Shown: positions 3,822 through 64,000 of the stretch, one piece after another
Position numbering within the stretch: position 1 is the first letter of the stretch
How the letters are laid out: every line of letters begins with the position of its first letter
The notes under the pieces: generated by a model
Seen by the model: the letters and a program-made list of their open reading frames with translations, nothing else
Told to the model about the DNA's origin: nothing
Database searches by the model: none
Position numbers and translations under genes: made by a program
Assembly: GCA_944393695.1 (NCBI GenBank)
Contig: CALYAY010000002.1
Coordinates: 46,244 to 110,243 of the forward strand
Length of the DNA: 64,000 nucleotides
Reading direction: 5' to 3'
Source: an uncultured Alphaproteobacteria bacterium
Lineage (GTDB): Bacteria > Pseudomonadota > Alphaproteobacteria > RF32 > CAG-239

Positions 3822-5813
3822 CTAAAACTCGATCACCGGCCGGACGTCATACTCTTTATCTTTCTGCGGATAATTGGTTAATCCGTATGTTCCGCCGAAA
3901 AACGACCTCCAGGCCCCCAGATCGGCCGTATATTCCGTTGACGTCCACAAGAAAGAATTACTCCCCAACTGCACACCACCGGCTCGTAAGAAACCGGCAT
4001 TAACAGCAGACATATTATTATTAATGCTGTACATAATTCCCGCCGCCGGCAGGCACCAGGCGCTCATTCCTCCGGCACTGTAACCGTCAGCCGCCCAGGC
4101 CGCCGGATAATGAAGATGATTTCCGGCATCAAGTATCTTATCCGTATTGCCGCAACTGTCAAAATCCCCGCTGGCCGCCGAAGCTGACCCGTATCCTGGT
4201 AAATCGCCGATATCTCCGTAATCACCCCACTGATATGCCCCAATAGACTTCAAAGCCATTGCCCAGCATATCTCTTTATCTCGACTCTTATATCTGTACA
4301 CCACAACGCCAACCGGAGTTTTTCCGGAAACTTTTTCTGTACCGCAACTTCCGTCGCTGAAAAAAATATCTCCGATTTGACAATTCGCCGTACACCCTTT
4401 GTCTTCCTGCACAACCACCTTTTCGCAAATTCCGTTTTTCCAGACATATCCCGAGGCGCAACGGCATGACTGATATTTTCCGTCGCAGGATGAGCCGGAA
4501 CCGCCGGTTTCGTTGGCACCGCTGCAAGTATATTTATATGAGGAATCGCAGGTGCAGGTTTGAGAACTTGCATTCCAGACATAGCCCGACTGACAGCCGT
4601 TTTTGCAGTATTTGTTGGAACATTCCTCTTTCTTACAGGTGTAAGGGGATGGACATGAATCCATGGAACATTCATTGGGACAAGGTTTGCAGTTGTCATA
4701 TTTAATTTCAGTTCCCGATTGACAGGTGTTTGCGCCGGCTTCGGGCCCCATGCTGCCGCAATCCATATATCCCTCACAGGGATTAGGTTTGATTTTGTAC
4801 TTGGTCTTGCCGTCGCAGTCCAGACAAGCCTCGCCGTCTTGTACATAGCCTTCGGGAATGGTCGTATAATCATATCCCGCACCGCAGGGTGTACATTCAC
4901 AGGAAGCATATTTTCCGTCGCAGGCCTCTCCCACTCCATGATAAGGAGGCTCGCAAGTGACGTAATCACTGGGGCAAAGGGCCCGACAATATTCGAAATA
5001 ACGATTATCATACGGGCAGAAATTAACCGCCTCATATCCTTCTGGACAGGAGGTTTTCGTGTATCCTTCTTCTTCGCAGCGTTTCTCGTCATCAAGTTCA
5101 TAATCATCACCGCCGCCGGGAGGCACCCCGCCATTATCCTCATCGGCATTATTCCCAACAAACTCATTCCCGGAACAGTTGGTTATATCCGTCACAAAAC
5201 ACGCCGCCGCAAGTTGGATAAGATTGTTGTTGTCTCCCTCACCCTGCCCCTCTCCCCTCAAGGAAGAGGTATTTCTTTCAATGTCATACTCCAACTTGAT
5301 TGGAGTATCCAGGTCAGATAAAGCAGCTGATTTATTCCACCTGGATCCTCGGGTTAAACCCGAGGATGACTGTTTTGTTTTTTCTTCCCTCCCTAAAGAT
5401 TTAGGGCTGGAGGCAGAAAATATCTCCGACGGAGATATTTTCAACGACAGGCGAGAGTTTGTTAACTCATAAGCTAGCGGCAGCGAAGCGAAATGAGCGT
5501 TACAAACCGAATGACCGCAGCGACTTAGTGTTGCCCTTCCGGCAACACTTACGGAGCCAGAGGTAAGGGAGGGTTTGAAACCCTCTCTGTCTCTCCCTGA
5601 GTTTTCAGGGAGAGTAAGTTCGGCAAAATCTTCAAGTGAAGACAAATGTCCGGCCGTGAGGTGTGAAGTGTGTGTAGAAACATGTGATTTAAGCAAAGCC
5701 GGACTTAATGACAAAGGCGTATCATCAGGATTAAAACCAGCGTAACACAAATCAGCTCCGGCAATGAAGGGCATGCACGAAACCGACAACATGAGAACAG
5801 TCTTATTCATCAT
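3822..5813 (-). CDS. Secreted Cys-rich protein with a DUF1566/Lcl-C-like C-terminal domain; its N-terminal linker is built from palindromic repeats
   Basis: The ORF is open to 5849, but its paralog at 61996 starts at the homologous MMN... and shares the upstream motif ATAAGATTCGTGAAGACAA, so the start is placed at 5813. Signal peptide, many Cys (CP.GY..C, CEPPY.GVGEAC.GKYASCE), C-terminal block WCLPAAG...WTST...VRPVIEF resembling DUF1566 (family name from memory). Inserted between secY and rplO. Confidence 0.7.
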   Translation of the reverse strand: MMNKTVLMLSVSCMPFIAGADLCYAGFNPDDTPLSLSPALLKSHVSTHTSHLTAGHLSSLEDFAELTLPENSGRDREGFKPSLTSGSVSVAGRATLSRCGHSVCNAHFASLPLAYELTNSRLSLKISPSEIFSASSPKSLGREEKTKQSSSGLTRGSRWNKSAALSDLDTPIKLEYDIERNTSSLRGEGQGEGDNNNLIQLAAACFVTDITNCSGNEFVGNNADEDNGGVPPGGGDDYELDDEKRCEEEGYTKTSCPEGYEAVNFCPYDNRYFEYCRALCPSDYVTCEPPYHGVGEACDGKYASCECTPCGAGYDYTTIPEGYVQDGEACLDCDGKTKYKIKPNPCEGYMDCGSMGPEAGANTCQSGTEIKYDNCKPCPNECSMDSCPSPYTCKKEECSNKYCKNGCQSGYVWNASSQTCTCDSSYKYTCSGANETGGSGSSCDGKYQSCRCASGYVWKNGICEKVVVQEDKGCTANCQIGDIFFSDGSCGTEKVSGKTPVGVVVYRYKSRDKEICWAMALKSIGAYQWGDYGDIGDLPGYGSASAASGDFDSCGNTDKILDAGNHLHYPAAWAADGYSAGGMSAWCLPAAGIMYSINNNMSAVNAGFLRAGGVQLGSNSFLWTSTEYTADLGAWRSFFGGTYGLTNYPQKDKEYDVRPVIEF
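5282..5640. repeat. Mosaic of short palindromic repeat units lying inside the 5' coding region of the 3822-5813 gene
   Basis: 5282-5371 is near-identical to 63121-63209, and 5387-5530 to 61491-61632. Hairpin units include GGATCCTCGGGTTAAACCCGAGGATG, CATACTCCAACTTGATTGGAGTATG, CCCTCCCTAAAGATTTAGGGCTGGAGG, GTTGCCGGAAGGGCAAC, GGGTTTCAAACCC, CTCCCTGAGTTTTCAGGGAG. Confidence 0.8.
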
Positions 5814-5839
5814 AATAGCACCTCTGTTATTAATTACAT

Positions 5840-5858
5840 TTGTCTTCACGAATCTTAT
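5840..5858 (-). promoter_or_regulatory. Conserved upstream motif ATAAGATTCGTGAAGACAA shared by the two Cys-rich family genes (copy 1)
   Basis: Identical 19-mer about 25 nt upstream of the MMN start here and at 61956-61974. Confidence 0.45.
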
Positions 5859-10128: not shown

Positions 10129-10496
10129 TATAAAACCTCCGGTGCTAATGAAATTATCTTCATAAATTTCTTCGCACGCAGTTCCCTCGTAACAGGCCCG
10201 AAAATACGGGTGCCGATAGGCTCGCCGTCTTTATTGATAAGAACTGCTGCATTGGTATCAAAACGAATGACACTGCCGTCTTTGCGTCTGATATCACTAG
10301 CGGTGCGAACGATTACAGCTTTAAGGACATCGCCTTTTTTCACACGTCCTTTCGGCATAGCGTCTTTAACGGAAACGACTATGACATCACCGACCGTTGC
10401 ATGCATTCTCTTAGACCCGCCGAGGACCTTAATGCACTGCACCTGACGTGCTCCTGAATTGTCTGCAACATCCAGGTTGGTTTGCATCTGAATCAT
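10128..10496 (-). CDS. rplN: 50S ribosomal protein L14
   Basis: 122 aa, [17 protein letters not shown]... Confidence 0.95.
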
Positions 10497-10515
10497 TTCT
10501 TACTTTCCTTTTCTC

Positions 10516-10752
10516 TTAGGCGTTATCAACGATCACAGTCCATTTTTTGGTCTTGGAATAAGGTTTTGCTTCCTCAATGGAAACCTTATCGCCGATCTTG
10601 AACTGATTGTTTTCATCATGAGCCGCAAACTTTTTGCTTCTCTTAACGAATTTCTTATAAACAGGATGCATAATCTGACGCTCAACGCTGACCACGACGG
10701 TTTTATCCTGTTTATCACTCACAACAACACCTTGAAGAATTCTTTTAGGCAT
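10516..10752 (-). CDS. rpsQ: 30S ribosomal protein S17
   Basis: 78 aa, [20 protein letters not shown]. Confidence 0.95.
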
Positions 10753-10763
10753 ATTTTTTCTCC

Positions 10764-10961
10764 CTAACTATTCTTCTTGCGCTCAGCAATGAGCGTGTTG
10801 ATTTTTGCTATTTCACGACGGACATTTCTGATAACCGAAGTATTCTGCAATTGTCCGGTAGACTGCTGGACTCTCAAATTGAACTGTTCTTTTTTCAGAT
10901 CAATCAACTTGGTTTCCAGTTCATCCAGTGACATAGCACGAAGATCTTTTGTTTTAACCAT
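10764..10961 (-). CDS. rpmC: 50S ribosomal protein L29
   Basis: 65 aa, [24 protein letters not shown]. Confidence 0.9.
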
Positions 10962-10965
10962 ATTA

Positions 10966-11391
10966 TTATTCTCCCAAATCCGAGTTCAGACGTTTAACAA
11001 ACTTGGTCTTAATGCCCAGTTTGGCAGCACCCAGGGCAAAAGCCTGCCGTGCGGTATCTTCGTCAATATCTCCGGCTTCAAAAATAATGCGGCCGGGTTT
11101 AACTCTTGCGCACCAGTATTCAACCGATCCCTTACCTTTACCCATACGGACTTCGGCAGGTTTATCCGAAACCGGCACATCCGGGAATATTCTGATCCAT
11201 AATCTTCCGGCTCTCTTCATTTCTCTGGTAATAGCGCGTCTGGCAGCTTCAATCTGACGTGCAGTAACGCGATCCGGAGTAAGAGCCTTCAATCCATATG
11301 AACCGAAACTTAATTCAGATCCGCCTTTGGCCAAACCGTGAATACGGCCCTTATGCTGCTTGCGGAACTTTAATCTTTTTGGACTTAACAT
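10966..11391 (-). CDS. rplP: 50S ribosomal protein L16
   Basis: 141 aa, [16 protein letters not shown]. Confidence 0.95.
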
Positions 11392-11536
11392 TTCTTATAT
11401 TACCTTTATTTCCAATCTCAATCAGGCTTATTAAGAAGCCCGGGCAGAAAAATTTTACCGACACTATACATTTATAGACGAATTTTGTCAAATATATTTT
11501 TTCTGCCTCGGTATAACTCCTTAAACACCTGTTGAA

Positions 11537-12205
11537 TTATTTTTGTTCAGCCAACTTTTTATCCTGAGCCATGGGATCATGGGTCATAATTTCACCCTTA
11601 TAGATCCACACTTTCACGCCGCAGGCGCCATAAGTTGTATGAGCCGTAGAGGTTGCATAATCAATGTCAGCGCGCAGTGTATGCAAAGGAACGCGCCCTT
11701 CGCGATAGTATTCCGTTCTGGCAATTTCGGCGCCGCCGAGACGACCTGAACAGCAAACCTTGATACCTTCTGCACCCAGACGAAGAGCCGACTGCATAAC
11801 TCTCTTCATTGCCCGGCGGAAAGCCACGCGGCGTTCCAGCTGCTGGGCAACGGAATCAGCAACCAGCTGAGCATCCAGCTCGGGTTTTCTGACTTCCAGA
11901 ATATTCAACTGGACTTCGGAATCAGTCATCTTCTGAATCTCTTTTCTCAGATTCTCGATATCCTGCCCCTTCTTGCCGATAACAATACCCGGTCTTGCAG
12001 AATGAATGGTAACTCTGGCTTTCTTAGCCGGACGTTCAATCACGATTCTGCTGACACCGGCCTGAGCCAGTTTATTTTTCAAGAATTTCTTGATTTTAAC
12101 GTCTTCGTGGAGATAGTCGGTGAACTTATCGTCGGCATACCAACGAGAATCCCATGTACGGTTAACTCCTAAACGAAGACCTGTCGGATTTACTTTTTGT
12201 CCCAT
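11537..12205 (-). CDS. rpsC: 30S ribosomal protein S3
   Basis: ORF is open to 12232, but the canonical S3 N-terminus [13 protein letters not shown] begins at Met-10, giving a 12205 start with no overlap on rplV. KH domain present. Confidence 0.93.
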
Positions 12206-12209
12206 TAAC

Positions 12210-12584
12210 TTACTCCCCACGCTCAGTAACAACGATGGTCAGGTTAGAGAACGGCTTCAAAACTCTGGCGCCTCTGCCGCGACCACGTGCGTGCATACGT
12301 TTCATAACTAAGCCCTTACCGACATAAGCTTCACTGACATAAAGCTTGTCGATATTGAGCTGGTGATTGTTCTCGGCATTTGCAATTGCAGACTGCAAAA
12401 CACCCAGAGCGGTTTTGGCAATTCTCTTCTTAGAAAAGCTAAGTTCGGCAACAGCCTTCTCGGCACTCAGACCGCGAATAGACCGTGCAACCAGATTCAG
12501 CTTACGAGGCGAAGTACGAATAGAGTTGCAATAGGCCATAGCCTGATTAGCTTCAACTCTTCTTGTCATTTTAGTCTTGCTCAT
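12210..12584 (-). CDS. rplV: 50S ribosomal protein L22
   Basis: 124 aa, typical L22. Confidence 0.95.
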
Positions 12585-12586
12585 AA

Positions 12587-12865
12587 TTAACCTCTCTTAG
12601 CTTTCTTGTCGCCGCCATGACCATAGAAAGTGCGGGTGGGGGCAAATTCGCCAAACTTGTGGCCGACCATATCTTCGGTAACCAATACCGGAATAAATTT
12701 ATGGCCGTTGTGAACGCCGAAAGTCAACCCGACAAACTGCGGCAGCATGGTAGATCTGCGAGACCAGATTTTAATAACTTCATTACGACCTGAACTTCTC
12801 GCCGCATCAGCTTTCTTAAGAAGATAGCCGTCAACAAATGGTCCTTTCCAAACGGAACGTGTCAT
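12587..12865 (-). CDS. rpsS: 30S ribosomal protein S19
   Basis: 92 aa, SVWKGPFVD...HNGHKF. Confidence 0.95.
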
Positions 12866-36841: not shown

Positions 36842-37897
36842 ATGCTCACTTTTATGACTGACCTTGTCCCGGTGCGGGCACTTTGGGCTTTTTTTACGGC
36901 ACTGATTATTGCTTTGGCAGTCGGAAGTCGTTTTATTGAATTTTGCCGTCATCACCAAGGCAAAGGCCAGCCTATTCGCGAAAGCGGTCCTCAAAGCCAC
37001 CTGCAAACCAAAAAAGGTACCCCGACCATGGGCGGCCTGCTCATTATCGGCGCCTCACTGACTTCGGCTCTGCTATGGTGCCGGCTCGACAATATTCATT
37101 TGTGGAGTTGTCTTTTTGTTTATCTGGCTTATGCCGCCATAGGCTTCACTGATGATTATCTCAAAGTCACAAAAAATACCAGCATAACCATCAGCGGCAA
37201 ACTCCGCCTCATTCTTGAATTTACCATTTCGCTGGCGGCTGTTGCAGCAGTTTCCTGGCTGAACCGCGGCCAACCGGATCAATTTGAACTAAACATCCCC
37301 TATTTCACGGATTTGAGTCTCAACCTTTGCTGGTTTTATATTCCTTTTGCCATGTTTGTCATTGTCGGCAGTGCCAATTCGGTCAACCTCAGTGACGGTC
37401 TTGACGGTCTGGCCGGCGGCCTGTGCATCATCGCTTTTGCCGCCTTTATGATTATTGCTTATCTCTGCGGCTCGGATTTTTATGCTTACTTCAATCTTTC
37501 CCCTGTTTTCCAAAGCAGCGAACTGGCCGTTCTTTGTGCGGCCGTGATCGGCGGTTGCGCCGGATTTCTGTGGTTTAATGCGCCGCCCGCCAAAATTTTC
37601 ATGGGAGACACCGGCTCGCTGGCTCTGGGCGGCCTGCTGGGCATGATTGCCGTCTGTACCCGGCATGAAATCATTCTCGCGGTCATCGGCGGTATTTTTG
37701 TTATTGAAGCACTTTCCGACATTATTCAGGTTTTCTGGTATAAACGCACCAAGCGCCGCGTTTTTCTGATGGCACCGATTCATCATCACTTTGAACAGCT
37801 GGGCTGGAAAGAAACCACGGTGGTTCTGCGCTTTTGGCTTGTTGGTCTGATGCTGGCGCTTCTCGGCCTGGCTTCTCTCGGCTGGACGGGAGCCTGA
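36842..37897 (+). CDS. mraY: phospho-N-acetylmuramoyl-pentapeptide transferase
   Basis: 351 aa multi-TM protein with MraY motifs (KKGTPTMGG, NxxNxxDGxDGL). Confidence 0.9.
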   Translation: MLTFMTDLVPVRALWAFFTALIIALAVGSRFIEFCRHHQGKGQPIRESGPQSHLQTKKGTPTMGGLLIIGASLTSALLWCRLDNIHLWSCLFVYLAYAAIGFTDDYLKVTKNTSITISGKLRLILEFTISLAAVAAVSWLNRGQPDQFELNIPYFTDLSLNLCWFYIPFAMFVIVGSANSVNLSDGLDGLAGGLCIIAFAAFMIIAYLCGSDFYAYFNLSPVFQSSELAVLCAAVIGGCAGFLWFNAPPAKIFMGDTGSLALGGLLGMIAVCTRHEIILAVIGGIFVIEALSDIIQVFWYKRTKRRVFLMAPIHHHFEQLGWKETTVVLRFWLVGLMLALLGLASLGWTGA

Positions 37898-37901
37898 TAA
37901 C

Positions 37902-39032
37902 ATGCGTTTTTCCCGCAACAGCCGCAATATTTTCAGCAACTGGTGGTGGACCGTTGACAAGGTTCTGCTGGCGATGATAACCATTTTGCTCATCATCGGT
38001 ATTTTTCTGAATTTTTCTGCCAGTCCCGCCGTGGCCAACCGTATCGGTGCCGCCACTTTTCACTTTGTCAAACGTCAGCTGTTTTTCATTCCGCTGGCTT
38101 ATGCGCTGATGTTGTTTTTATCCGTACAAAAGCTCAAAACCATCCGCCGTATTGCCATTATTGGTTATTTTGTGGTTATTGCCCTTATGGTACTGACCTT
38201 GTTTTGGGGAGAAGAAACCAAAGGTGCCTCCCGCTGGATTCGCATCTTTGGTTTTTCATTGCAGCCCTCCGAATTTGTAAAACCGATGTTTGCCGTTGTT
38301 GCCGCCTGGCTGTTTAACGGCCAGAAGCAGCATAGCGATTTTCCGGGAGACACTTTGTCTTTCGGACTTTATTGCCTTACCATTTTTTTGCTGGCTCTTC
38401 AACCGGATATCGGTATGTCCATTGTTATTACCGCCATTTGGGGATTCCAGTTTTTCTTAAGCGGTTTGTCGCTGTTGTTCGTCGGCTTGCTCATCGGCGG
38501 CGGTCTGGGACTTTTGGTCATTGCTTATTTTTCATTTGACCATGTTCATACCCGCGTCAACCAGTTTCTGGCCTCTGACGGCGAACTCAGCTATCAGGTG
38601 CGCAAATCGCTGGAAGCTTTTTCCAATGGTCACTTTTTTGGCATGGGCCCGGGCGAAGGCATCGTCAAAGTAAACATCCCCGATGCCCACACCGATTTTA
38701 TTTTTGCGGTTGCCGGAGAAGAATTCGGCCTGTTTCTTTGCCTTATCATTGTCGGAATTTATGCCGCAATTGTGATTCGCGCCATGCTTATAGCCATTCG
38801 CGAGAACAATATGTTTATCATGCTGGCCGCGGCAGGACTGGCTGCTTCTTTCGGTCTGCAAGCAATTATTAACATGGCATCAACTCTTCACCTGATGCCC
38901 ACCAAAGGCATGACTCTGCCCTTTATTTCTTACGGCGGTTCCTCTCTGCTGGCGTCCGCCCTGGGCATGGGCATGCTTTTGGCCATTACCCGGAAAAATG
39001 TAAACGCGGAGGATAAAGATGAACTCGACTGA
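37902..39032 (+). CDS. ftsW: cell division protein FtsW (SEDS family)
   Basis: 376 aa, 10-TM SEDS pattern, sits between mraY and murG. Confidence 0.85.
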   Translation: MRFSRNSRNIFSNWWWTVDKVLLAMITILLIIGIFLNFSASPAVANRIGAATFHFVKRQLFFIPLAYALMLFLSVQKLKTIRRIAIIGYFVVIALMVLTLFWGEETKGASRWIRIFGFSLQPSEFVKPMFAVVAAWLFNGQKQHSDFPGDTLSFGLYCLTIFLLALQPDIGMSIVITAIWGFQFFLSGLSLLFVGLLIGGGLGLLVIAYFSFDHVHTRVNQFLASDGELSYQVRKSLEAFSNGHFFGMGPGEGIVKVNIPDAHTDFIFAVAGEEFGLFLCLIIVGIYAAIVIRAMLIAIRENNMFIMLAAAGLAASFGLQAIINMASTLHLMPTKGMTLPFISYGGSSLLASALGMGMLLAITRKNVNAEDKDELD

Positions 39033-40155
39033 CAAAACAGATACACCCCAAACTTCTTCGGAAGAAAAAAAACTGATTATACTCACCGCAGGCGGTACCG
39101 GCGGTCACGTTTATCCTGCCGAAGCATTGGCTGAAGAACTGTTGCGTCGCGGCTACCGGTTGGCTCTGGTTACCGATTCCAGAGGAAAAGACAACTACCG
39201 CGGCACTCTGGGAAAAATTCCCAATTATGCCGTTATGGCCGGCGGCATGGTCGGCAAATCCGAACTCACCAAACTGCAAAGCTTGGGCAAAATCTTTATC
39301 GGCATTCTGCAATCCTGCCTCATTCTACTCCGCCACAAACCGGCCTGCGTTATCGGCTTTGGCGGCTATGCTTCCTTTCCCTGCGCCATGGCCGCGGTGT
39401 TGCTGGGCATCAAACTGATTATTCACGAACAAAACTCGGTCATGAGCCGCACCAACCGTTTCTTGAGCAAATATGCCGTGCTCATCGCCCAAAGTTTCAA
39501 AAAAGTCAAACATACACCGGCAGGAGTAAAAACCGTCCTCACCGGCATGCCCGTCCGCCAGAATATTGTTGAGCTCAACAAACGCGGTTATCCCCGGCCC
39601 GGAGCAAACGATCCGCTGCAGCTTCTCATTCTGGGCGGCAGTCAGGGCGCCAAAATTTTCGGACAGATTCTGCCTTCGGCTTTATCCCTCTTGCCCCCGG
39701 AGACTGCAAAGCGGCTGAAAATTTATCAGCAATGCAACAAAGACATGAAAGACGATCTGAAAAAAATCTACAAGGAAACATCTCTGAATGTCACGGTTTC
39801 TCCGTTTTTTGAAAACATGGCCGAACTTTATGCCTCGACCAACGTTATCATCTCACGGGCCGGTGCTTCCTCGGTCAGCGAAATTGCCGTTGCCGGTATT
39901 CCATCGATTCTGGTGCCGCTGCCCACTGCCGCTGATGACCATCAGACCGGCAATACTCATGACCTGGCTGCCGTCGGCGGGGCAATTGTCATCCCCCAAA
40001 CTGACTTTACTGCCGGCAAAGTAGCCAATATCCTGACATCCCTCTTAACCGACGGCGAACAACTTGAAAAAATGTCCCGGGCTGCCCGCCAGGTGGCCAT
40101 TAGTGATGCGGCGATTCGTTTTGCCGATGCCGTGGAAACCGAAATTCAAGCCTGA
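39019..40155 (+). CDS. murG: UDP-GlcNAc:lipid I GlcNAc transferase MurG
   Basis: 378 aa, GGTGGHVYPA N-terminal motif. Confidence 0.9.
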   Translation: MNSTDKTDTPQTSSEEKKLIILTAGGTGGHVYPAEALAEELLRRGYRLALVTDSRGKDNYRGTLGKIPNYAVMAGGMVGKSELTKLQSLGKIFIGILQSCLILLRHKPACVIGFGGYASFPCAMAAVLLGIKLIIHEQNSVMSRTNRFLSKYAVLIAQSFKKVKHTPAGVKTVLTGMPVRQNIVELNKRGYPRPGANDPLQLLILGGSQGAKIFGQILPSALSLLPPETAKRLKIYQQCNKDMKDDLKKIYKETSLNVTVSPFFENMAELYASTNVIISRAGASSVSEIAVAGIPSILVPLPTAADDHQTGNTHDLAAVGGAIVIPQTDFTAGKVANILTSLLTDGEQLEKMSRAARQVAISDAAIRFADAVETEIQA

Positions 40156-40168
40156 AAGACCCCAAAAC

Positions 40169-41098
40169 ATGTTTAACCGCCTCTTTGAAAAAAAACATTC
40201 CGACAGCCTGATTGATCTTTTGCCCGGGGTACGCGGCCGCTACAAAAAAGACGAGCCCCTGAAAAAATACACCTGGTTTGCCGTCGGCGGCCCGGCAGAA
40301 GTTATGTATATTCCGGCAGATATTGAGGATTTGGCTTTTTTCATGAGCACCCGCCCGCATAATCTGCCGATTCTGGTTCTCGGCGGCGGCGCCAATCTTC
40401 TGGTGCGTGACGGCGGAGTTCCGGGCGTAGTCATCAAGCTGGCCTCTCCGGAATTCAAAAAATATTCCCTCGGAGATCATACCATTACCTGCGGCTGCGG
40501 TATGTATAATGTTGATTTGCAAAAAATCATGATTGAAAACCGCATCGGCGGCCTGGAATTTTTATCTACCATTCCCGGAACCATCGGCGGCTCGGTCAAA
40601 ACCAATGCCGGTTGTTATGGACGTGAAGTCAAAGACGTTATTATCAGCGTCCGCATTGTCAACGGCACCGGTGAAATCCGCGACATTCCCGTTAACGAGC
40701 TGATGCTTTCTTACCGCAGCAGCTTCTTTCCTGAAGACTGGATAATCACATCCATCACCTTCCGTACCACCCCAGACACTCCCGAAAACATTGCCCGAAC
40801 CATTGCCGAACAAAAGAAAAAACGCTTAAAAAGCCAGCCCCACAATGTGAAGACGGCCGGTTCGACATTTAAGAATCCGGAAGGACTTAAAGCCTGGCAG
40901 CTGATAAAAAAAGCCGGCTGCGACCATCTCAGCATCGGCAAAGCCAAAGTCTCCGAAGTACACTGCAATTTTCTGGTAAACACCGGCGGTGCTTCAGCCC
41001 GCGACATTGAAACCCTCGGCGAAGAAATCATCCGCCGCGTCAGGGAACAAACTTCCATTACATTAGAATGGGAAGTCAAACGCGTCGGAGTTTATTAA
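40169..41098 (+). CDS. murB: UDP-N-acetylenolpyruvoylglucosamine reductase
   Basis: FAD-binding domain (WFAVGGPAE..., LGGGANLL). Start placed at MFNRLFEK just after the murG stop. The ORF track's extension overlaps murG. Confidence 0.85.
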   Translation: MFNRLFEKKHSDSLIDLLPGVRGRYKKDEPLKKYTWFAVGGPAEVMYIPADIEDLAFFMSTRPHNLPILVLGGGANLLVRDGGVPGVVIKLASPEFKKYSLGDHTITCGCGMYNVDLQKIMIENRIGGLEFLSTIPGTIGGSVKTNAGCYGREVKDVIISVRIVNGTGEIRDIPVNELMLSYRSSFFPEDWIITSITFRTTPDTPENIARTIAEQKKKRLKSQPHNVKTAGSTFKNPEGLKAWQLIKKAGCDHLSIGKAKVSEVHCNFLVNTGGASARDIETLGEEIIRRVREQTSITLEWEVKRVGVY

Positions 41099-41103
41099 AA
41101 ACC

Positions 41104-41949
41104 ATGCCCCGGTCTGCCAAAGAAAATAATCGCATCAGTCTGCCCCTGGAATGGCCTTATCGTCTTCTGGGCAATCTGGTTATTCTCGGTATTATTTTTT
41201 TTCTGGCCTCAATAACCGTTACGATCAAAACCGATCTGATTAACAAAAAACTGCTCAATCTCCAGGATTCTTTTTATCGTTTTACCACTGATCTCGGTTT
41301 TACCGTTGAGGATATTGTCGTCAGCGGCCGCCGTCACACCGGCATGGACGAAATCCGCTCGGCACTGAACATTGACCGCCGCACCAATATCCTCCGGCTT
41401 AATCTGGATGAAATTCGTGAACGTCTGGAGCAGCTGCCCTGGATTCGCAAGGTTGTTGTCCGCCGCAGTTTTTTTCCTCATACCCTTTATATCGGAATTC
41501 TCGAATATACGGTTAAAAGTCTCTGGCAATACAACGGAAAATTTCATCCCATCGGCGAAAACGGACAAATTATCAATGCTGATTACATTCCCCGCCGCCC
41601 GGTTTTGCTGATTGTCGGCGCCGGGGCTCCCGAAAACATCAGCAAACTTCTTCCCGTCATAGAAAAAGACAAAGATATCTTCCGCCGTGTGAAAGTGGCC
41701 GTTTATGTTTCCGGCCGCCGGTGGAATCTCATTCTTGACCACATCAGTCACGGAATCGTTATCAAACTCCCCGAAACCGGCGTCCGGGAAGCTTGGGAAA
41801 AACTGATTAAATTAAACCGTTCCAAAAACATTCTTAAACGTAAATTAACCAACATTGATTTAAGATTAAAAGGAAAAGTTATCGTAAAGCTTGAAAAGTC
41901 GGATTCTGCGGCCGCCAAAAAGCGCAAAGCCAAAGAAAGCAAAATCTGA
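41104..41949 (+). CDS. ftsQ: cell division protein FtsQ
   Basis: N-terminal TM helix then a POTRA-like region. Start at MPRSAKENN just after the murB stop. Confidence 0.75.
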   Translation: MPRSAKENNRISLPLEWPYRLLGNLVILGIIFFLASITVTIKTDLINKKLLNLQDSFYRFTTDLGFTVEDIVVSGRRHTGMDEIRSALNIDRRTNILRLNLDEIRERLEQLPWIRKVVVRRSFFPHTLYIGILEYTVKSLWQYNGKFHPIGENGQIINADYIPRRPVLLIVGAGAPENISKLLPVIEKDKDIFRRVKVAVYVSGRRWNLILDHISHGIVIKLPETGVREAWEKLIKLNRSKNILKRKLTNIDLRLKGKVIVKLEKSDSAAAKKRKAKESKI

Positions 41950-41962
41950 GGAAAGGAAGAAA

Positions 41963-43216
41963 GTGACACATTCATTTAACCGTCTGACCACCATTGCCGC
42001 TCTGGATATCGGTTCATCCAAAGTTTGCTGCATCATTGCCAAAATCAGCCGGGACAAACGAATCAATGTTGTCGGTTATGGTTATAACGCTTCCAAAGGC
42101 ATAAAAAACGGCGTTATCACCGATCTCAACCAGGCCACGCTTTCTGTCTGCAATGCCGTAGAAACCGCCGAACAAATGGCCAACGAACGCATCGACCGGG
42201 TTATTGTGAATATTTCCGGCGATAAAATCAAAAGCGTTATCAAAAGTGCCTCTATTTCGCTGAACAAAAACCACCCCGTCAATGAAAACGACATAAACAA
42301 AGTCATCAGCAAAGGCATCAACAAAATTAACGTTGAAGGCAATGAGCTGATTCACTGCCTGCCCATGAGCTACCGCTGCGACCGGGGAGAAGAAATCAAA
42401 GATCCGCGCAACATTTTCGGCGAAGAACTTTCCGTTGACATTCTGCTGGGACTTATCCCCGACAACATGTTCAAAAACATCGGAACCGTTATCGAAAACG
42501 CCCATCTTGAAATTGCCGAAAAAGCCTTCACGGCTTATGCCTCCGGCCTTTCCTGCCTGGTTGAAGACGAAATGGAACTCGGCGCCACGGTCATTGACAT
42601 CGGCGGCGGCACCACCAGCATCTGTTCGTTTAAGCACGGCCATCCCACTTATTTTTCGGCGCTTCCCGTCGGCGGCAACAATGTCACCAACGATATTGCT
42701 TGGGGACTGACCACTTCGACAACTCATGCCGAACGTCTTAAAACCCTTCATGGCTGTGCTTTTCTCACCAGCAAAGACAAGGAAGAAACCATCAACGTTT
42801 ATCCCGTGGGCGAAGAAGACGACAGTTCCATCAAACAGGTTCCCAAAGCCGAACTCATCAGCATTATCACGCCCCGCATTGAAGAAATCTTTGAGCTTGT
42901 TAATCACAAACTTGAAAAACATGGTCTCCGTGGCATATCCAGCCACCGTATTGTCCTGACTGGCGGCGGCAGCTGCTTGTCCGGAATCCGCGATGTTGCT
43001 TCCATGGTGCTCGACAAACAGGTACGCCTCGGCCGCCCGCGCAACATGCTTAACCTGCCGGACAATCTGTGCAATCCGGCTTTTTCAACGGCTGTCGGAT
43101 TACTGCTGTTTGCCCTGAACTATACCGAAAAGAAACCCGGCAAAATCATTAATAAGCCAACACGCTCGACAACCGGACTGGGGCATATTTTCGGCTGGAT
43201 GAAGCAAAATTTCTGA
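41963..43216 (+). CDS. ftsA: cell division protein FtsA (GTG start)
   Basis: Actin-like ATPase (ALDIGSSKV...). The GTG at 41963 follows an AGGAAG SD and the ftsQ stop. The ORF-track start at 41891 overlaps ftsQ. Confidence 0.8.
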   Translation: MTHSFNRLTTIAALDIGSSKVCCIIAKISRDKRINVVGYGYNASKGIKNGVITDLNQATLSVCNAVETAEQMANERIDRVIVNISGDKIKSVIKSASISLNKNHPVNENDINKVISKGINKINVEGNELIHCLPMSYRCDRGEEIKDPRNIFGEELSVDILLGLIPDNMFKNIGTVIENAHLEIAEKAFTAYASGLSCLVEDEMELGATVIDIGGGTTSICSFKHGHPTYFSALPVGGNNVTNDIAWGLTTSTTHAERLKTLHGCAFLTSKDKEETINVYPVGEEDDSSIKQVPKAELISIITPRIEEIFELVNHKLEKHGLRGISSHRIVLTGGGSCLSGIRDVASMVLDKQVRLGRPRNMLNLPDNLCNPAFSTAVGLLLFALNYTEKKPGKIINKPTRSTTGLGHIFGWMKQNF

Positions 43217-43259
43217 TAACAAAAAGGCCGGGGGAATAATCTTCCCTCAGCCCTTTTTT

Positions 43260-43817
43260 TTATTCTCCCTCCAGATACATCACCGGCCGGACATGACATA
43301 ATTCTCCGCCGCCGTAAATGTCCGAGGAAGCGTTGTCAAAACCAATAATCCATGGTGCAATACCCGGTCCTCTTTTTCCGCTTGCAGTATCGGCCCAATA
43401 ACCTTTATGGTCTGTTTTTATAGCCACCAAGGGTTTCCCGCCGACACTTTCCAGCTTTTGATTCAGAGCCTCAAAATAAGGTGCAACCTTTTGCTCCAAA
43501 CCGGCACGTGGCAAGGTAGTTGCTCTTCCTGCAATTTCAACCTTACGGCAATAATCACAGGCCCGGTCAAAATTCATCAGAGTATCAGCATCCTTCAGTG
43601 CAAAAACCACCAGGCCGCAGCGCACTCCTTCAATTTTTCCGTTCTCTCCGCGATAAGGCTCAATCAATTTTCCGAGGTCAACATTTTTTTCTTCGTTTTT
43701 GGGTTCTTTGAACTGTACTTTTGTCACAGTTTTCTTTCCGAACTTTTCAAACAATCTGTCGGCAAACACTCCGGCAACAAAAGAGACAAAGCTGGTAAAC
43801 AAAATTTTTTTATCCAT
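43260..43817 (-). CDS. Secreted/anchored single-domain DUF1566/Lcl-C-like protein
   Basis: 185 aa. N-terminal hydrophobic anchor. C-terminus TLPRAGLEQ...YWADT...APWIIGFDN...CHVRPV is homologous to the VRPV(I/L)EF-ending domains at 3822 and 49130. Lies on the opposite strand between ftsA and ftsZ. Confidence 0.55.
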   Translation of the reverse strand: MDKKILFTSFVSFVAGVFADRLFEKFGKKTVTKVQFKEPKNEEKNVDLGKLIEPYRGENGKIEGVRCGLVVFALKDADTLMNFDRACDYCRKVEIAGRATTLPRAGLEQKVAPYFEALNQKLESVGGKPLVAIKTDHKGYWADTASGKRGPGIAPWIIGFDNASSDIYGGGELCHVRPVMYLEGE

Positions 43818-43980
43818 AATTGTACAATTTAATAATAAAACGATACAGTCGGTATACTCGCTGTTAACATTTTTGTCAACTCAAAAAACTCTCAAAAAAA
43901 TCCCTTCGCTAACCATTGCTTAATCAATTTTTTTTATACTGAACCCAATCAAAAAAGACCTATTTGGGAGAAGAATAATA

Positions 43981-45672
43981 ATGTCAATAAAATTAGCCGT
44001 TCCGGAAACAAGCATAACCCACCTGAAACCGCGCATCTCCGTTATCGGAGTCGGCGGCGGCGGCGGTAATGCCGTCAACAACATGATTGCCCAAAATCTG
44101 GAAGGAGTCGATTTTATTGTAGCCAACACCGATTCTCAGGCTTTGGCTCATTCTTCGGCCAGCCGCAAAATTCAACTCGGCCTTCAAACCACACAGGGAC
44201 TGGGAGCCGGCGCTCGTCCGGAAGTAGGCAAAATGGCAGCGGAAGAAGCCAAAGAAGAGATCGAAAAAGAGCTTGAAGGCGCCAACATGGTCTTTATCAC
44301 TGCCGGCATGGGCGGCGGCACAGGCTCCGGTGCGGCTCCCGTGGTGGCCAAACTGGCCAAGGAAAAAGGCATTCTGACCATCGGCGTTGTCACCAAACCA
44401 TTTCAGTTCGAGGGCCGCAAACGCATGGAAACTGCCGAAACCGCGGTTGAAGAATTTACCAAATCCGTCGACAGTATCATCATCATCCCCAACCAGAATC
44501 TGTTTCGCATTGCCGACAAAAACACCACTCTGGCCGATGCCTTTGTCATGGCGGACAATGTTTTGTATTCCGGCGTCCGCTCCATTACCGACCTGATGAT
44601 GATGCCCGGCCTGATAAACCTTGACTTTGCCGACATCAAATCTATCATGCAGGATAAAGGCAAAGCCATCATGGGCACCGGCGAGGCCGAAGGCGACGAA
44701 CGCGCCGTTAAAGCCGCCGAACAAGCTCTGTCCAATCCGCTGCTGGATGACTGCAATATGCACGGTGCCAAGGGTGTTTTGATTAACATCACCGGCGGCT
44801 CCGATATTACCCTTTTTGAAATCGACGAAGCTGCCAGCCGCATTAAGGAAGAAGTTGACGAAGAAGCCAACATCATTTTCGGTTCCAGCTTCGATGAAAC
44901 GCTTAAAGGCAAGATTCGCGTTTCCATTGTTGCCACCGGTATCGGTGATGCCGGCAAAAAGCAACAACCCCAGCCGCCGCGTGCGGCCAAAGTCGCCAGC
45001 TATATTGAACAAAGTTACAATATTGCCGGAGCGGAAAAAACAGCTGTCGCTTCTGCTGACGCCGAAATGGATTCCGATCTTGAAAAATTTTCGGCCACCA
45101 AACCGGCCGAACGGGAAGAAACCGTTTCTGTCATTGCAACCGAAACTTTTTCTGCTCCCGACTTGAACCAGACTGAACCCACGGCCGTTTCCGACACTCC
45201 TGCCGAAGAAAAAATTGAAGAATTCAATAATTTTGATGCTTCTTCGGTCATGTCTGAAATGCCCAAAGCTTCCTCTTTGTTCAAGGCTATTATTAACAAC
45301 AAACCGGAAGACGCCAGCGTCAGCGCCCAGCTTGAAACCGCCCTGTCTTCCAATGAAAACGTCTTCACGGCCAAAAGCACTGTTCGCACCGTTGAAGAAG
45401 AACCCGAATTATTTCCCAATCAGACGCCGCCTGCCTTCACGGCAAGACCGGCCGAAGAACCCGAAAAACTGATTGTCGAAGATGACGACGAAGAATACAC
45501 GCCGACGCTGATTGAACGCGTCACCGGCTTCTCCATTGCCAAGCGTAACCGCAAAAAGAAAGAAGCCGCCGAACGTTATGAGCAGATTGCTCCGTCTTTT
45601 TCATCTGACGGCAACGGCACCGATGACGAACGGATGAATCTGGAGATTCCGTCTTTTCTGCGCCGGCGCTAA
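43981..45672 (+). CDS. ftsZ: cell division GTPase FtsZ (long C-terminal linker)
   Basis: 563 aa, [26 protein letters not shown] tubulin signature. Long disordered linker as in alphaproteobacteria. Confidence 0.97.
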
Positions 45673-46125
45673 AAAAACGTACTATTATCCTGACACCAAA
45701 GGTTCCGTGTTTTCGGAACCTTTTCTTTTTCCGGACACAAAAAAAGGTTTCCTTTTGAGGGGAAACCTGAGAGAGTTTTTTGCTGATTAACAAGTTAAAA
45801 AACCTCCTTCATCCAACATGTCTGGTATCAGTTCTTCACCGGCAGCCATGTTCATAATAAGTTCTTCAACCATTGAATAATTTTCATCAGCATAAATTTT
45901 TTTTGTTTCCATATATTTATTTTTTTTAGTTAATAATAATTCTGCTCTAAAGCAACTATGAAAACATTTTTTGATGTTTCTGAATAATTGCTATAATAAT
46001 TTCTTTATGATTTTAATATAGCACATTTCGCGTCTCCCGCCAACAACAATTATATGAACTTTTTGTTACAGACATAAAAAAACACCGCCGGGCCGCAAAG
46101 CCGGGCAGTGTTCTTTAATTTGCTG

Positions 46126-46821
46126 CTAACGCACAGGAGTGGGCGGAATATATCTCAGGTTTTCATCCTTCCAGTTCACCGACCCGGTGCTTTGGTGCCA
46201 ATAAACCACTTTCGGATGCATATTTGGCAGATGTTTGTCGGTCTTATACAAGGGCGGATATATCACATGCGGATAATAGCCATTCTTGATGCCTTCCATT
46301 ATGAAATACACAATTTCCGGCAGATAATTCTCCACCCCGGTAACTGCCTCGCCATATTTAAAATACACTTCCGGAATTTCATACAAATACAAACAGGCAA
46401 AACCGTTCCCATATGCATGATACCATTCGGCAAACGGAAAATTCTTATGCATATTCTCAGGAATAAATGCTTCAATTTCCCCTGTCGGAAAAACGGCACA
46501 CCATGAAAACTTCGCCGGACAATATCTCCCCGTCAGCAAACGGCAAATCTGATTTAAAGAATAAAAGCGGCAATCCTCTGCATTATCGCACAAAATAAAC
46601 GAATTCATCTGTTCATACGTACAGATATAGATTTCCACCATTTCCCTCAAATCTTTGATTTTTTCGCCTGGATTGGAAATTTCCAAAGCTTCCAAAGACT
46701 TCTCTCGCAAATCAAAAAATATAACCGGACCTTTGCCGCTATACTCTGATTTCTCGACAACTCTCAAAAACTCCACCCTCAAAAGGGCGTACAGCTCCTT
46801 AAATCTTTCTAATGTATCCAT
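46126..46821 (-). CDS. hypothetical protein (231 aa), unrecognised, Tyr/aromatic-rich
   Basis: Complete ORF, no recognisable motifs. Confidence 0.45.
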   Translation of the reverse strand: MDTLERFKELYALLRVEFLRVVEKSEYSGKGPVIFFDLREKSLEALEISNPGEKIKDLREMVEIYICTYEQMNSFILCDNAEDCRFYSLNQICRLLTGRYCPAKFSWCAVFPTGEIEAFIPENMHKNFPFAEWYHAYGNGFACLYLYEIPEVYFKYGEAVTGVENYLPEIVYFIMEGIKNGYYPHVIYPPLYKTDKHLPNMHPKVVYWHQSTGSVNWKDENLRYIPPTPVR

Positions 46822-49076: not shown

Positions 49077-49129
49077 GGATATAAGGAGAAACAAATATTA
49101 TTAACAACTAATATAAAAGGAGAAAGGTT
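49077..49129 (+). promoter_or_regulatory. Duplicated 5' leader/RBS region of the DUF1566-like genes (copy at 63395-63448)
   Basis: GGATATAAGGAGAAACAAATATTATTAACAACTAATATAAAAGGAGAAAGGTT then ATG. Near-identical at 63395-63448. Confidence 0.5.
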
Positions 49130-49945
49130 ATGAAGAAGATATTATTGGCGAGTGTCGGAATTATAATAAGCACAGGAACAACATATGCCGCGTGTATCCC
49201 GACGCCGAGTTGTTCAAGTTTGGGATATGAAAGCTCCTCATCCTGCGAGGGCGGGCTCAAATGTCCGTTCGGCAATGCCTGGAACTGCACTTTGGTAAAC
49301 AAAATTACTGAAATCACTACCGAGATAACCGAAATCAAAAAAGTGATTGAAGAAGGCGGTGTCGGAGGTGGTAATAAAAACTGCCAGATTGGAAACATCT
49401 ATTATTCTGACAAAACCTGTTCTGTATCTTTGGACAGTTCCAAAACCCCGATTGGCGTGGTGGTTTATGTCGATGGCCAGGGACATGGGCAAGTGATGGC
49501 GTTGAAGTCAATAGGTAAGAATCAATGGGGATCAACGAATGTTGATATTCCGACCTTGACTAACTTTAGCAGTGATGAAAGTGCGAGTTACGATTTGAGC
49601 AGCTGTGCTAATACCCAGAAGATTATGACAGCCGGTGATAAGAGTACTTATCCGGCGGCTTGGGCGGCACACGAGTATAAAACCGAGGGAACGGAAGCCG
49701 GTGACTGGTGCCTGCCAGCAGCCGGTGTATTTACTTCATACTACAATAATCAACAGTTGGTTAATATCGGTATGACGAACGCCGGAGGCACTCAGATAGG
49801 TGAGTATACCTATATCTGGTCGTCTTCCGAATGCGGTAGCGGCAACGTGTGGACCTCGGATTTCCGCCACGACTACGGGGTGAGCGACGGCTATGGCAGT
49901 AAGCTTAGCAGAGGCAACGAGGTTCGACCGGTGCTGGAATTTTAA
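49130..49945 (+). CDS. Secreted DUF1566/Lcl-C-like protein (family copy B)
   Basis: 271 aa. Signal peptide, short Cys-rich N-terminus, C-terminus DWCLPAAGVF...IWSSSE...EVRPVLEF. 5' region and upstream 53 bp nearly identical to the gene at 63449. Confidence 0.7.
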   Translation: MKKILLASVGIIISTGTTYAACIPTPSCSSLGYESSSSCEGGLKCPFGNAWNCTLVNKITEITTEITEIKKVIEEGGVGGGNKNCQIGNIYYSDKTCSVSLDSSKTPIGVVVYVDGQGHGQVMALKSIGKNQWGSTNVDIPTLTNFSSDESASYDLSSCANTQKIMTAGDKSTYPAAWAAHEYKTEGTEAGDWCLPAAGVFTSYYNNQQLVNIGMTNAGGTQIGEYTYIWSSSECGSGNVWTSDFRHDYGVSDGYGSKLSRGNEVRPVLEF

Positions 49946-49986
49946 TCAAGAAATCCCGGAAATGAAACCCGGGATTTTTTTTATCA

Positions 49987-61995: not shown

Positions 61996-63057
61996 ATGAT
62001 GAACAGTAACAAAGCATTATTGCTTATTTCAGCATCAGGGCTGCTGCTTATGCCCTGCGGCATATCTTTGGCAGCTTATTTGCCTCAGTCATCTCTTCCG
62101 GATGCGATTACATCTGTCTATAACACACACTTCACACACACCTCTCACCCGGGGGAAGTGTTGTTGTCTTCTGCCTTTTATCCTCTCCCTGAAAACTCAG
62201 GGAGCTCTCTATTCTACCCCCTCCCTAAAAACTTAGGGAGGGGTTGGGGAGGGTTTCACAACACCACCCTTATCCAACTCGCTGCGACTTGTTTTGTGAC
62301 CGATACCTCGGCCTGTTCGGGCAACGAGTTTTCCGGCAATAATGCCGATGATGACGGACATGGTGCTCCCGGCGGTCCCGGAGACGGTGACGATTATGAG
62401 CTTGATAATAAAGAGCGTTGCAATAAAGAGGGCTATTATCTGACTTCATGCCCGGACGGACAAGAGGGTTCAGGTTTCTGCCCCTATGACAACGGTTATT
62501 TCGAAAAATGTGTTTCGTCCTGTCCTTCAAATTATGTGACCTGTGAACCGCCTTACTATGGCGTGGGTGAGGCTTGTAACGGTAAATATGCCTCTTGTGA
62601 AAAAGACACTGAGCGCGCCTGTCAGGAATTAAACCCCGGTTATGTCGATGAATGCGGCACCGGACAACAATTAAGCGATGACAGATGTTCTTATGATAGC
62701 TCTTACGGCACCTGTTGTAATACTTGTGAGGGTTACGATAACACCACTATTTCCGAGGGCTATGTGCAAGACGGCGAGGCCTGCACCGGCTGCGACGGTC
62801 AGGAACATTATAAGATAAAACCCAACCCGTGTGACGGATTTATGGACTGCGGCTCCATGGGCGGCGAAGCCGGAGCGAAGACCTGCCTGTCGGGGACAAC
62901 CACCATGTACGACAATTGTAAGGCCTGTCCCAACTTGGGAGAATACACTACCTGTCCGAGCTGTACCATATGCCAGTATGAAGAATGCTCCGGTCTGTGG
63001 TATGCCACCGGCTGTGCCACGAATTGTACGGATTATTGTGACTTCTGCGGCGGGTGA
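61996..63057 (+). CDS. Secreted Cys-rich protein homologous to the N-terminal two-thirds of the 3822-5813 protein; lacks the DUF1566-like domain
   Basis: 353 aa. Signal peptide. Shared blocks THTSH, LPENSG, LIQLAATCFVTD, CSGNEF, DDYELD, FCPYDN.YFE.C, CEPPYYGVGEAC.GKYASCE. Same upstream motif ATAAGATTCGTGAAGACAA. A palindromic repeat is translated in-frame as PLPKNLGRGWGGFH. Confidence 0.65.
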   Translation: MMNSNKALLLISASGLLLMPCGISLAAYLPQSSLPDAITSVYNTHFTHTSHPGEVLLSSAFYPLPENSGSSLFYPLPKNLGRGWGGFHNTTLIQLAATCFVTDTSACSGNEFSGNNADDDGHGAPGGPGDGDDYELDNKERCNKEGYYLTSCPDGQEGSGFCPYDNGYFEKCVSSCPSNYVTCEPPYYGVGEACNGKYASCEKDTERACQELNPGYVDECGTGQQLSDDRCSYDSSYGTCCNTCEGYDNTTISEGYVQDGEACTGCDGQEHYKIKPNPCDGFMDCGSMGGEAGAKTCLSGTTTMYDNCKACPNLGEYTTCPSCTICQYEECSGLWYATGCATNCTDYCDFCGG

Positions 63058-63448: not shown

Positions 63449-64000
63449 ATGAGAAAGATATTATTAGCGGGTGTAGGAATTATAATAAGTACAGGAACAG
63501 CATATGCAGCCTGTATCCCGACGCCGAGTTGTTCAAGTTTAGGCTATGAAAGTTCCTCATCATGTGAAGGCGGGATTAAATGCCCCTTCGGCAATGCCTG
63601 GAATTGCACTTTGGTAAACAAAATTACTGAAATCACTACCGAGATAACCGAAATCAAAAAAGTGATTGAAGAAGGCGGCATTGGAGGAAAAGGCGACACT
63701 TCAAACTGCGTTGTCGGCTCAATTTTCTACTCTGATTGGACTTGTTCATACGGAAGTGTTATTGCAACCAAAGCACCTATCGGTGTCGTGATTTACAGCG
63801 ATAATGCCGGACATGGACAGGTTATGGCTCTGAATAGTATCGGTACTTATAAGTGGGGTGGATATGGCACGGATATTCCAACGCTTCAGAACTTTACATC
63901 AGCTTCGGTTGCTTCTCAGGATTTGGCAAGCTGTAAAAATACAGCTAAAATTATTGCAGCCGGTGATAAGAATAAATATCCAGCAGCTTGGGCAGCACAC
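63449..64000 (+). CDS. Secreted DUF1566/Lcl-C-like protein (family copy C, 3' partial at the window end)
   Basis: N-terminal ~80 aa and upstream 53 bp nearly identical to the gene at 49130. Diverges after EEGG. PAAWAAH at the window end matches the family. Confidence 0.65.
   Translation, partial: MRKILLAGVGIIISTGTAYAACIPTPSCSSLGYESSSSCEGGIKCPFGNAWNCTLVNKITEITTEITEIKKVIEEGGIGGKGDTSNCVVGSIFYSDWTCSYGSVIATKAPIGVVIYSDNAGHGQVMALNSIGTYKWGGYGTDIPTLQNFTSASVASQDLASCKNTAKIIAAGDKNKYPAAWAAH

Follow-up and report, generated by a model that had tools for sequence, protein, structure and literature searches.

In a 64,000-nucleotide stretch of DNA from an uncultured Alphaproteobacteria bacterium (hereafter the window; contig CALYAY010000002.1), ftsA and ftsZ are separated by a gap of 764 bp (43217..43980), in which a single long open reading frame (ORF), on the minus strand, encodes a 185-residue protein referred to here as p185. 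The reading that we favour, with a probability of about 0.72, is that p185 is a lineage-specific accessory gene for a small exported binding protein with a divergent Lcl_C/DUF1566 lectin-fold domain, inserted once at a permissive site. Within a domain superfamily that is already known, the protein is a new and highly divergent member, and its location, though unusual, can be explained. The insert would be a self-contained unit, with a sigma-70-like promoter of its own and a terminator (A-run/hairpin/T-run) in common with ftsA. In the ancestor of a clade of 14 species of uncultured gut Alphaproteobacteria it was acquired, most parsimoniously, by a single insertion downstream of the ftsA stop codon and ahead of an independent ftsZ promoter; because this promoter appears autonomous and ftsZ expression would need no read-through, the site would be permissive. 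Vertical inheritance followed, with a clean loss in one subclade, a tandem duplication in one species and replacement or rearrangement in three others. The product, composed of a Sec-type signal or anchor, a flexible linker of ~30 residues and one Lcl_C/DUF1566-type domain, would be exported and would act outside the cytoplasm as a module binding a glycan or a protein; membership of the division machinery is improbable.

The p185 gene and its predicted domain

The features on which this reading is built are the following:

41891..43216, plus strand: ftsA (Pfam FtsA 8.8e-41, SHS2_FTSA 5.2e-14), left border of the insert
43260..43817, minus strand: p185 coding sequence, 185 aa, ATG start, identified from the ORF, same-site orthologs and the ratio of non-synonymous to synonymous substitution (dN/dS)
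43761..43817, minus strand: putative N-terminal signal peptide or signal anchor, aa 1-19 (MDKK followed by ILFTSFVSFVAGVFA, with a possible cleavage site between VFA and D)
43275..43670, minus strand: predicted domain of C-type-lectin fold, Lcl_C/DUF1566-like, aa ~50-181, after a linker of ~30 aa that is modelled with low confidence
43981..45672, plus strand: ftsZ (Pfam Tubulin 1.8e-51, FtsZ_C 5.4e-37), right border of the insert

p185 is a real gene, under purifying selection though fast-evolving. Public gene calls place it at the identical site on over 24 conspecific metagenome contigs, where the product always differs from that of the window by S9G, and across 8 strain contigs the coding sequence varies by 1-3 nt per 558 nt, with no clustering of the differences at the C-terminus; this polymorphism is lower than that of ftsZ on the same contigs. 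Orthologs of 166-175 aa, in the same position and orientation and 32–43 % identical, are present in seven other species, and invariant columns number 26 in an 8-sequence alignment and 27 in a 12-sequence alignment. Pairwise dN/dS values, obtained by the Nei-Gojobori method for pairs with unsaturated dS only, range from 0.24 to 0.32, compared with 0.004-0.07 for FtsA in the same species, and in individual species pairs the dN of p185 is ~6-26 times that of FtsA (0.13 versus 0.005 for L010 and L032, for instance).

Because the same product recurs on conspecific contigs, has divergent orthologs at the same site and shows dN/dS values of this order, p185 is not a chance ORF. That it could be a spurious or decaying frame in an expanded spacer, as the lack of a Pfam or NCBIfam match, the lack of an obvious Shine-Dalgarno sequence and its loss in some relatives might suggest, is effectively refuted by a frame kept in seven species at this level of divergence, by the invariant columns and the selection values just given, and by a confident fold prediction. 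An earlier note, made from the letters of the window alone, had described an opposite-strand protein of 185 aa between ftsA and ftsZ, from which it quoted the strings YWADT, APWIIGFDN and CHVRPV; the ORF in the 764-bp gap and its translation bear this out.

One additional contig of 4.4 kb (L009), which has only window positions 43689-45848 in common with the window, carries the first 43 p185 codons fused to a tetratricopeptide repeat (TPR) protein, and its ftsZ is flanked by cysS and dus, which are not its usual neighbours. It represents either a rearranged strain or an assembly chimera.

The orphan-like family of p185 comprises 16 clusters among 5.8 billion proteins. Scans of the whole protein and of the domain alone against Pfam and NCBIfam gave no match up to E = 10, a PDB sequence search gave a chance match at E = 2 only, and a word-index homolog search with p185 alone returned near-identical copies plus one contig common in the N-terminal 43 aa only. 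More distant kinship is visible through its relatives. Sub-threshold matches to Lcl_C (PF07603) occur in five of eight orthologs (12-21 bits, E 4.5e-4 to 0.2), below the gathering threshold of 34.9 bits, and they always span profile positions ~72-116 and stop at the protein C-terminus. In a phmmer search of p185 against 1.84e9 representative proteins, P0132, with five Lcl_C domains, was reached at E = 2.2e-5 and P0134, with four, at E = 2.4e-4, in both cases inside the Lcl_C stretch; a hidden Markov model (HMM) of the p185 family scores the same two proteins at 81.6 and 31.4 bits, which connects p185 by transitive homology to bona fide Lcl_C members. With 12 family sequences as input, AlphaFold2 gives a confident model of residues 50-185, and 92 residues reach a pLDDT (predicted local distance difference test) of 90 or more, while a model from the single sequence (pLDDT 34) was unusable, and the predicted structure has the fold of the C-terminal domain (CTD) of Lcl (PDB 8q4e).

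Since the ortholog matches, the phmmer hits to multi-Lcl_C proteins and the AlphaFold2 model agree, these remote lines converge on a divergent Lcl_C/DUF1566 C-type-lectin-like domain in p185, and a structural and family assignment can thus be proposed for an orphan-like family that profile libraries miss. To call p185 DUF1566-like, as had been done at the outset, was right in spirit, as a matter of remote homology, although the HMM search gives p185 itself no Pfam match at E <= 10. The nearest relative outside the ftsA–ftsZ orthologs is P0128, a 372-aa protein (L090:5001-6119) with two tandem p185-like domains (~1e-15 each), encoded in an ordinary chromosomal context with tig, MlaD and DUF2155 genes; its lineage is a possible source of the insert.

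At the N-terminus, Lys residues are followed by a hydrophobic stretch of 15 residues with a mean Kyte-Doolittle value of 2.2, and a hydrophobic N-terminus is kept in 11 of the 12 p185-family members, the exception being copy 2 of L019. It can plausibly be read as a Sec signal peptide or signal anchor, which leaves the earlier description of an anchored, secreted protein plausible, with the choice between signal peptide and anchor read from residue composition.

By analogy with the Lcl CTD, invasin, intimin, fimbrial tips and Bdellovibrio fibre tips, the most likely role of p185 would be extracytoplasmic ligand binding. These systems differ from p185 in architecture. Lcl of Legionella pneumophila (PF07603, PDB 8q4e) has a collagen-like stalk and an N-terminal amphipathic helix, neither of which is present in p185; p185 consists of one small domain preceded by a signal or anchor, and the Lcl_C scores fall under the Pfam cut-off. 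Similarly, in invasin/intimin D5, the Bacteroides fimbrial tip BACOVA_04982, the CTD of Bdellovibrio Bd2740 and the variable proteins TvpA and Mtd of diversity-generating retroelements (DGRs), the domain tips a large fibre or adhesin, whereas that of p185 stands alone. Lcl is trimeric and binds glycosaminoglycans (GAGs) through a positively charged face, the lysines of which lack conservation even between the Lcl orthologs of Legionella, and its authors consider the generic role of DUF1566 unclear (PMC11162425).

The domain of p185 has a pI of 7.2, and that of most orthologs 4.6-5.2, which argues against likeness to the basic face of Lcl; as the domain is acidic to neutral and not Lys-rich, GAG binding cannot be deduced from the fold. 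None of the motifs EPN, QPD and WND is present in p185, which is therefore not a canonical Ca2+-dependent C-type lectin carbohydrate-recognition domain; an isolated EPN, without WND, is found in 2 of the 12 family members, and C90 is the only Cys that is invariant across the family. With this charge and no Ca2+/sugar motif pair, p185 need not use the GAG-binding mode of Lcl.

History of the ftsA–ftsZ junction

A scan with FtsA, taking one genome per species, returned 80 species, the closest being metagenome-assembled genomes of uncultured gut Alphaproteobacteria (human, ruminant, deer), with Azospirillum, Niveispirillum and Kiloniella at ~42 % FtsA identity. The ftsA–ftsZ gap measures 58-223 bp in ~66 of the 80 species. 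All enlarged or altered junctions in species with at least 62 % FtsA identity fall in one 14-species clade, which is supported in 200/200 bootstraps of a species tree built from concatenated FtsA, FtsQ, MurB and MurG (200 bootstraps); the exception outside this clade is L079 (41 % FtsA identity), where the locus extends 164 nt beyond ftsA and has no ftsZ in that stretch. Within the clade, the junction takes the following forms:

Window species, L010, L014, L017, L019, L032 and L055: p185-like gene at the junction, in two tandem copies in L019
L012, L016, L018 and L020: no insert, gap of 91-131 bp
L015: unrelated 397-bp gap
L011: junction with a lipoprotein-like ORF, a tyrosine integrase and a resolvase
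L013: fabZ-lpxD-bamA after ftsA

The four insert-free species are monophyletic (200/200) and sister to the insert-bearing pair L017 and L019 (200/200), and the identities among p185 orthologs mirror the species tree. The parsimonious history is thus one gain at the base of the clade, vertical descent, one clean loss and one duplication. The junction is also generally unstable in this clade, where insertion, loss, tandem duplication, an integrase island and rearrangement are all represented. Our literature search found nothing specific on genes between ftsA and ftsZ, nor on this lineage.

Several of these loci deserve a closer description. In L019 (7342-8391), the ftsZ-proximal member of the tandem pair is 36 % identical to the other copy and has no hydrophobic N-terminus. 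L055 carries, between ftsA and its p185 ortholog, an extra segment of 335 bp (7318-7652) that is unique among the loci examined and contains two perfect 50-bp direct repeats ~230 bp apart. In L011, whose FtsA is among the most similar (89 % identity), ftsA is followed (7300-12836) by an opposite-strand 149-aa lipoprotein-like ORF, a tyrosine recombinase with DUF6538 and Phage_integrase domains, and a resolvase, and ftsZ is absent within 6 kb of ftsA; this junction looks like an integrative element at the same site. The 149-aa ORF was considered as a p185 relative and rejected. L015 was likewise rejected as the holder of a decayed p185, its 397-bp gap containing neither a DNA nor a protein remnant. 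In L013 (7338-12071), fabZ, lpxD and bamA, on the opposite strand, replace ftsZ after ftsA, through either rearrangement or mis-assembly.

The presence of an integrase and a resolvase at the same junction in L011, together with the repeat-flanked segment of L055, could be taken to mean that p185 is itself the cargo of a mobile element or phage, or else a DGR target, the more so as DUF1566 and CLec domains are common DGR targets, DUF1566 being a recurrent one (PMC4159848, PMC5758913). We regard this as very improbable. At the p185 site itself, no integrase, insertion sequence (IS) element or convincing target-site duplication flanks the gene, p185 has no match in phage collections, plasmid collections or PHROGs, and the divergence of its orthologs tracks the species tree. 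As a DGR target p185 was rejected on two counts, its near-invariance within the species (1-3 nt, with no C-terminal clustering) and the absence, in the window, of any repeat of its 3' region. It thus differs from TvpA and Mtd, having neither a DGR nor hypervariability, and the combination of a variable C-terminus, a template repeat and a nearby reverse transcriptase was not found, the last having been looked for in the window.

Regulatory DNA around the insert

The DNA on both sides of p185 bears on why the insertion is tolerated. Its elements are as follows:

43216..43263, no strand assigned: bidirectional intrinsic-terminator-like dyad, A-run/G+C hairpin/T-run, with arms at 43216-43234 and 43245-43263
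43851..43879, minus strand: putative p185 promoter read from the sequence, -35 TTGACA at 43879-43874, 17-nt spacer, -10 TATACC at 43856-43851
43909..43970, plus strand: ftsZ promoter-proximal region, with a CtrA-box-like CTAA-N7-TTAA at 43909-43923, TATACT at 43935-43940 and the ribosome-binding site GGGAG at 43966-43970

An alignment of 16 species shows the ~75 nt that immediately precede ftsZ to be conserved throughout, whether the insert is present or absent. In this alignment, the CTAA-N7-TTAA element (columns TAAC…TTAA) is invariant, and TATAcT and GGAG are conserved. The element lies 11 nt upstream of TATACT and has one mismatch to a TTAA-N7-TTAA-type box; the CTAA-N7-TTAA form is that of the CtrA site of Caulobacter fliQ (Table 2 of PMC3751295). 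The Caulobacter ftsZ promoter carries a canonical CtrA box, and in that bacterium the promoters of ftsQA and ftsZ were each assayed in a reporter fusion of its own (PMC3751295). The putative box suggests that ftsZ is under CtrA-type cell-cycle control in these gut Alphaproteobacteria, which would resemble Caulobacter crescentus in giving ftsZ its own promoter with a CtrA-type box. They differ from it, and from ~66 of the 80 relatives, in that a gene lies between ftsA and ftsZ, a place where none is known in Caulobacter.

Because the insert lies upstream of an apparently autonomous ftsZ promoter, no operon would be broken, which removes most of the surprise. The earlier note had presented ftsA–ftsZ adjacency as among the most conserved in bacteria, and the short gap in most of the species scanned agrees with it; the implied disruption of a unit was overstated, ftsZ having its own conserved promoter. 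The junction thus provides a natural case in which this adjacency is interrupted and the ftsZ promoter is untouched, and since that promoter is intact, the adjacency in these Alphaproteobacteria would be historical and not functionally enforced.

On the ftsA side, where the stop codons of ftsA and p185 converge, the 43-nt spacer that separates them is taken up by the dyad. The dyad-symmetric spacer noticed earlier next to ftsA was recovered as an inverted repeat, by folding and by a terminator scan, with folding energies of -18.9 kcal/mol on the plus strand and -21.6 kcal/mol on the minus strand (z = -3.4 and -3.1 relative to shuffled sequences). Its structure is that expected of a bidirectional intrinsic terminator, so that it may end transcripts from both genes. 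An equivalent hairpin, although of another sequence, recurs in all species that carry the insert, and a terminator directly after ftsA is also present in some insert-free relatives (L020, L022). On the ftsZ side, a T-run followed by TTGAC precedes 6 of 8 p185 orthologs and agrees with the candidate promoter listed above. Rfam gave no RNA family in the ftsA–ftsZ region.

A number of points weigh against an exported lectin-fold accessory protein as the whole account. Export is predicted from the composition of the N-terminus, and the second copy of L019 lacks the hydrophobic stretch. Neither p185 nor any ortholog scores above threshold with a Pfam or NCBIfam model, so that the family assignment draws on remote similarity and a predicted structure whose best Foldseek E value is 5e-3. 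Binding is suggested by analogy, for a domain unlike the Lys-rich GAG face and devoid of an EPN or QPD motif paired with WND. No evident Shine-Dalgarno sequence precedes the p185 ATG. Finally, p185 is oriented divergently from the ftsZ promoter, which makes co-regulation with division possible.

This last point bears on the proposal that p185 is a clade-specific periplasmic division or envelope factor, whose membrane-tethered lectin-like domain would bind septal peptidoglycan or another envelope glycan and which would be co-regulated with ftsZ. The gene does sit inside the dcw cluster with its promoter ~30 nt from that of ftsZ, its predicted extracytoplasmic domain belongs to a glycan-binding fold class, and within the species it is strongly conserved, being less polymorphic than ftsZ. 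Yet p185 is absent from ~66 of 80 relatives, has been cleanly lost in four species of the clade and replaced in others, changes 6-26 times faster than FtsA, is encoded on the opposite strand, has a terminator of its own and matches no known divisome family, which makes such a role improbable. Under the favoured reading of an accessory gene, the current understanding of cell division is unchanged, and the p185 locus is a curiosity rather than a new division mechanism.

Other VRPV-ending proteins and neighbouring genes

The window encodes further proteins related to p185 or to its relatives, so that it holds 4-5 superfamily genes in 64 kb (p675, p271, p185, p353 and the gene at the window end):

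3822..5849, minus strand: p675, a 675-aa Cys-rich protein and distant superfamily relative, likewise with a VRPV(L/I)EF end, whose last ~100 aa match the p185-family HMM
49130..49945, plus strand: p271, ending in VRPV(L/I)EF, kin of p185 at the superfamily level only
61996-63057, plus strand: p353, with the Cys-rich N-terminal module of p675 only (E = 9e-80)
63449..64000, plus strand: truncated p271-like gene of the VRPV(L/I)EF family, at 326 bits to the family HMM, running off the window end

p271 and p675 are closely related in their C-terminal halves (E = 1.6e-44), and the p271 family counts 890 proteins at E <= 0.001, with Pfam Lcl_C reached by 21 of 40 sampled members (best 2.9e-6). Kinship with p185 is far weaker. 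By blastp, p185 matches p271 and p675 at a non-significant E of 0.4-1.1, and when p185 alone is aligned to the p271-family profile, hhalign returns a probability of 0.24 %; with family against family, the probability is 26 % at E = 7e-4, collinear up to VRPV. When the p185-family HMM, built without the window p185, is run against the 570 ORFs of the window, it recovers p185 (1e-42), p675 (7e-4) and p271 (1.6), and elsewhere it matches other p271-family members at up to 28 bits, always in their last ~95 residues. The reciprocal p271-family HMM misses p185 (E = 19).

p185 and the p271/p675 proteins are thus alike in belonging to the same organism and superfamily, in a collinear C-terminal region of ~95 residues ending in VRPV and in having genes beside highly conserved ones. 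They differ in that p271/p675 proteins have a lipoprotein-like (lipobox-like) leader and a Cys-rich CIPTPSCSSLGYESSSSCEGG module, both absent from p185, and in that p185 belongs to a tiny family of 16 clusters at a strain-invariant locus, whereas the p271 locus varies between strains. Significant direct similarity, leader and module, which together characterise p271/p675 members, are thus all wanting in p185, and the sequence comparisons indicate two separate families in one superfamily. The earlier note had placed p185 in the same family as the VRPV(I/L)EF-ending members and had proposed comparing the C-terminal domains; statistically supported similarity exists at the profile level (E = 7e-4) and not in pairwise comparison, so that the claim holds for the superfamily and not for the family.

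These data also speak to the idea that p185 is a direct paralog of the p271/p675 family, brought to conserved junctions by the same mechanism. The collinear alignments ending in VRPV, the profile scores just given and the facts that both families touch Lcl_C and that p675 lies at rplO–secY favour it, but the pairwise, single-sequence and reciprocal comparisons fail, even family against family hhalign reaches a probability of only 26 %, p185 has no lipoprotein-like leader or Cys-rich module, and the p185 site showed neither shared flanking repeats nor an integrase or IS element. In addition, with a family of 890 members and 4-5 superfamily genes in 64 kb, chance adjacency to conserved genes is expected. 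We consider direct paralogy unlikely.

p675 lies between secY (2283-3668) and rplO (6291-6752), both identified by Pfam, on the same strand and within the spc ribosomal operon, which is otherwise strongly conserved, a position arguably more surprising than that of p185 at ftsA–ftsZ. The suggestion that p185 marks a third conserved junction hit by one family therefore holds for rplO–secY, while no evidence was found that the p271 junction is conserved. The disturbed ftsA–ftsZ junction and a superfamily relative in the spc operon together hint at the spread of abundant surface-protein families through compact gut-symbiont genomes. Two more far-reaching scenarios can be formulated: either ftsA–ftsZ is a recombination or integration hotspot, with genes for Lcl_C-like exported proteins preferring the boundaries of essential pairs (ftsA–ftsZ, rplO–secY) as 'safe harbours' protected from deletion, or the clade has recruited p185 as a periplasmic lectin-like factor of its own, active at the division site and expressed divergently from the cell-cycle-controlled ftsZ promoter. 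Taken as a pair, they are a long shot.

The p271 locus (coordinates 1-900 of L001-L008, ~ window 49100-49950) encodes products of 271, 339 and 276 aa across strains of one species; unlike the invariant p185, this surface-protein locus varies from strain to strain.

Upstream of p185, the dcw cluster reads mraY-ftsW-murG-murB-ftsQ-ftsA (window 36842-43216; Pfam labels of public gene calls), with overlaps between murG and murB and between murB and ftsQ, and with no murC or ddl between the dcw genes here, an order that differs from the arrangement in most Alphaproteobacteria. Downstream of ftsZ, a 231-aa ORF on the minus strand (46126-46821) has no Pfam or NCBIfam match, and gene calls include it on every contig from the same species.

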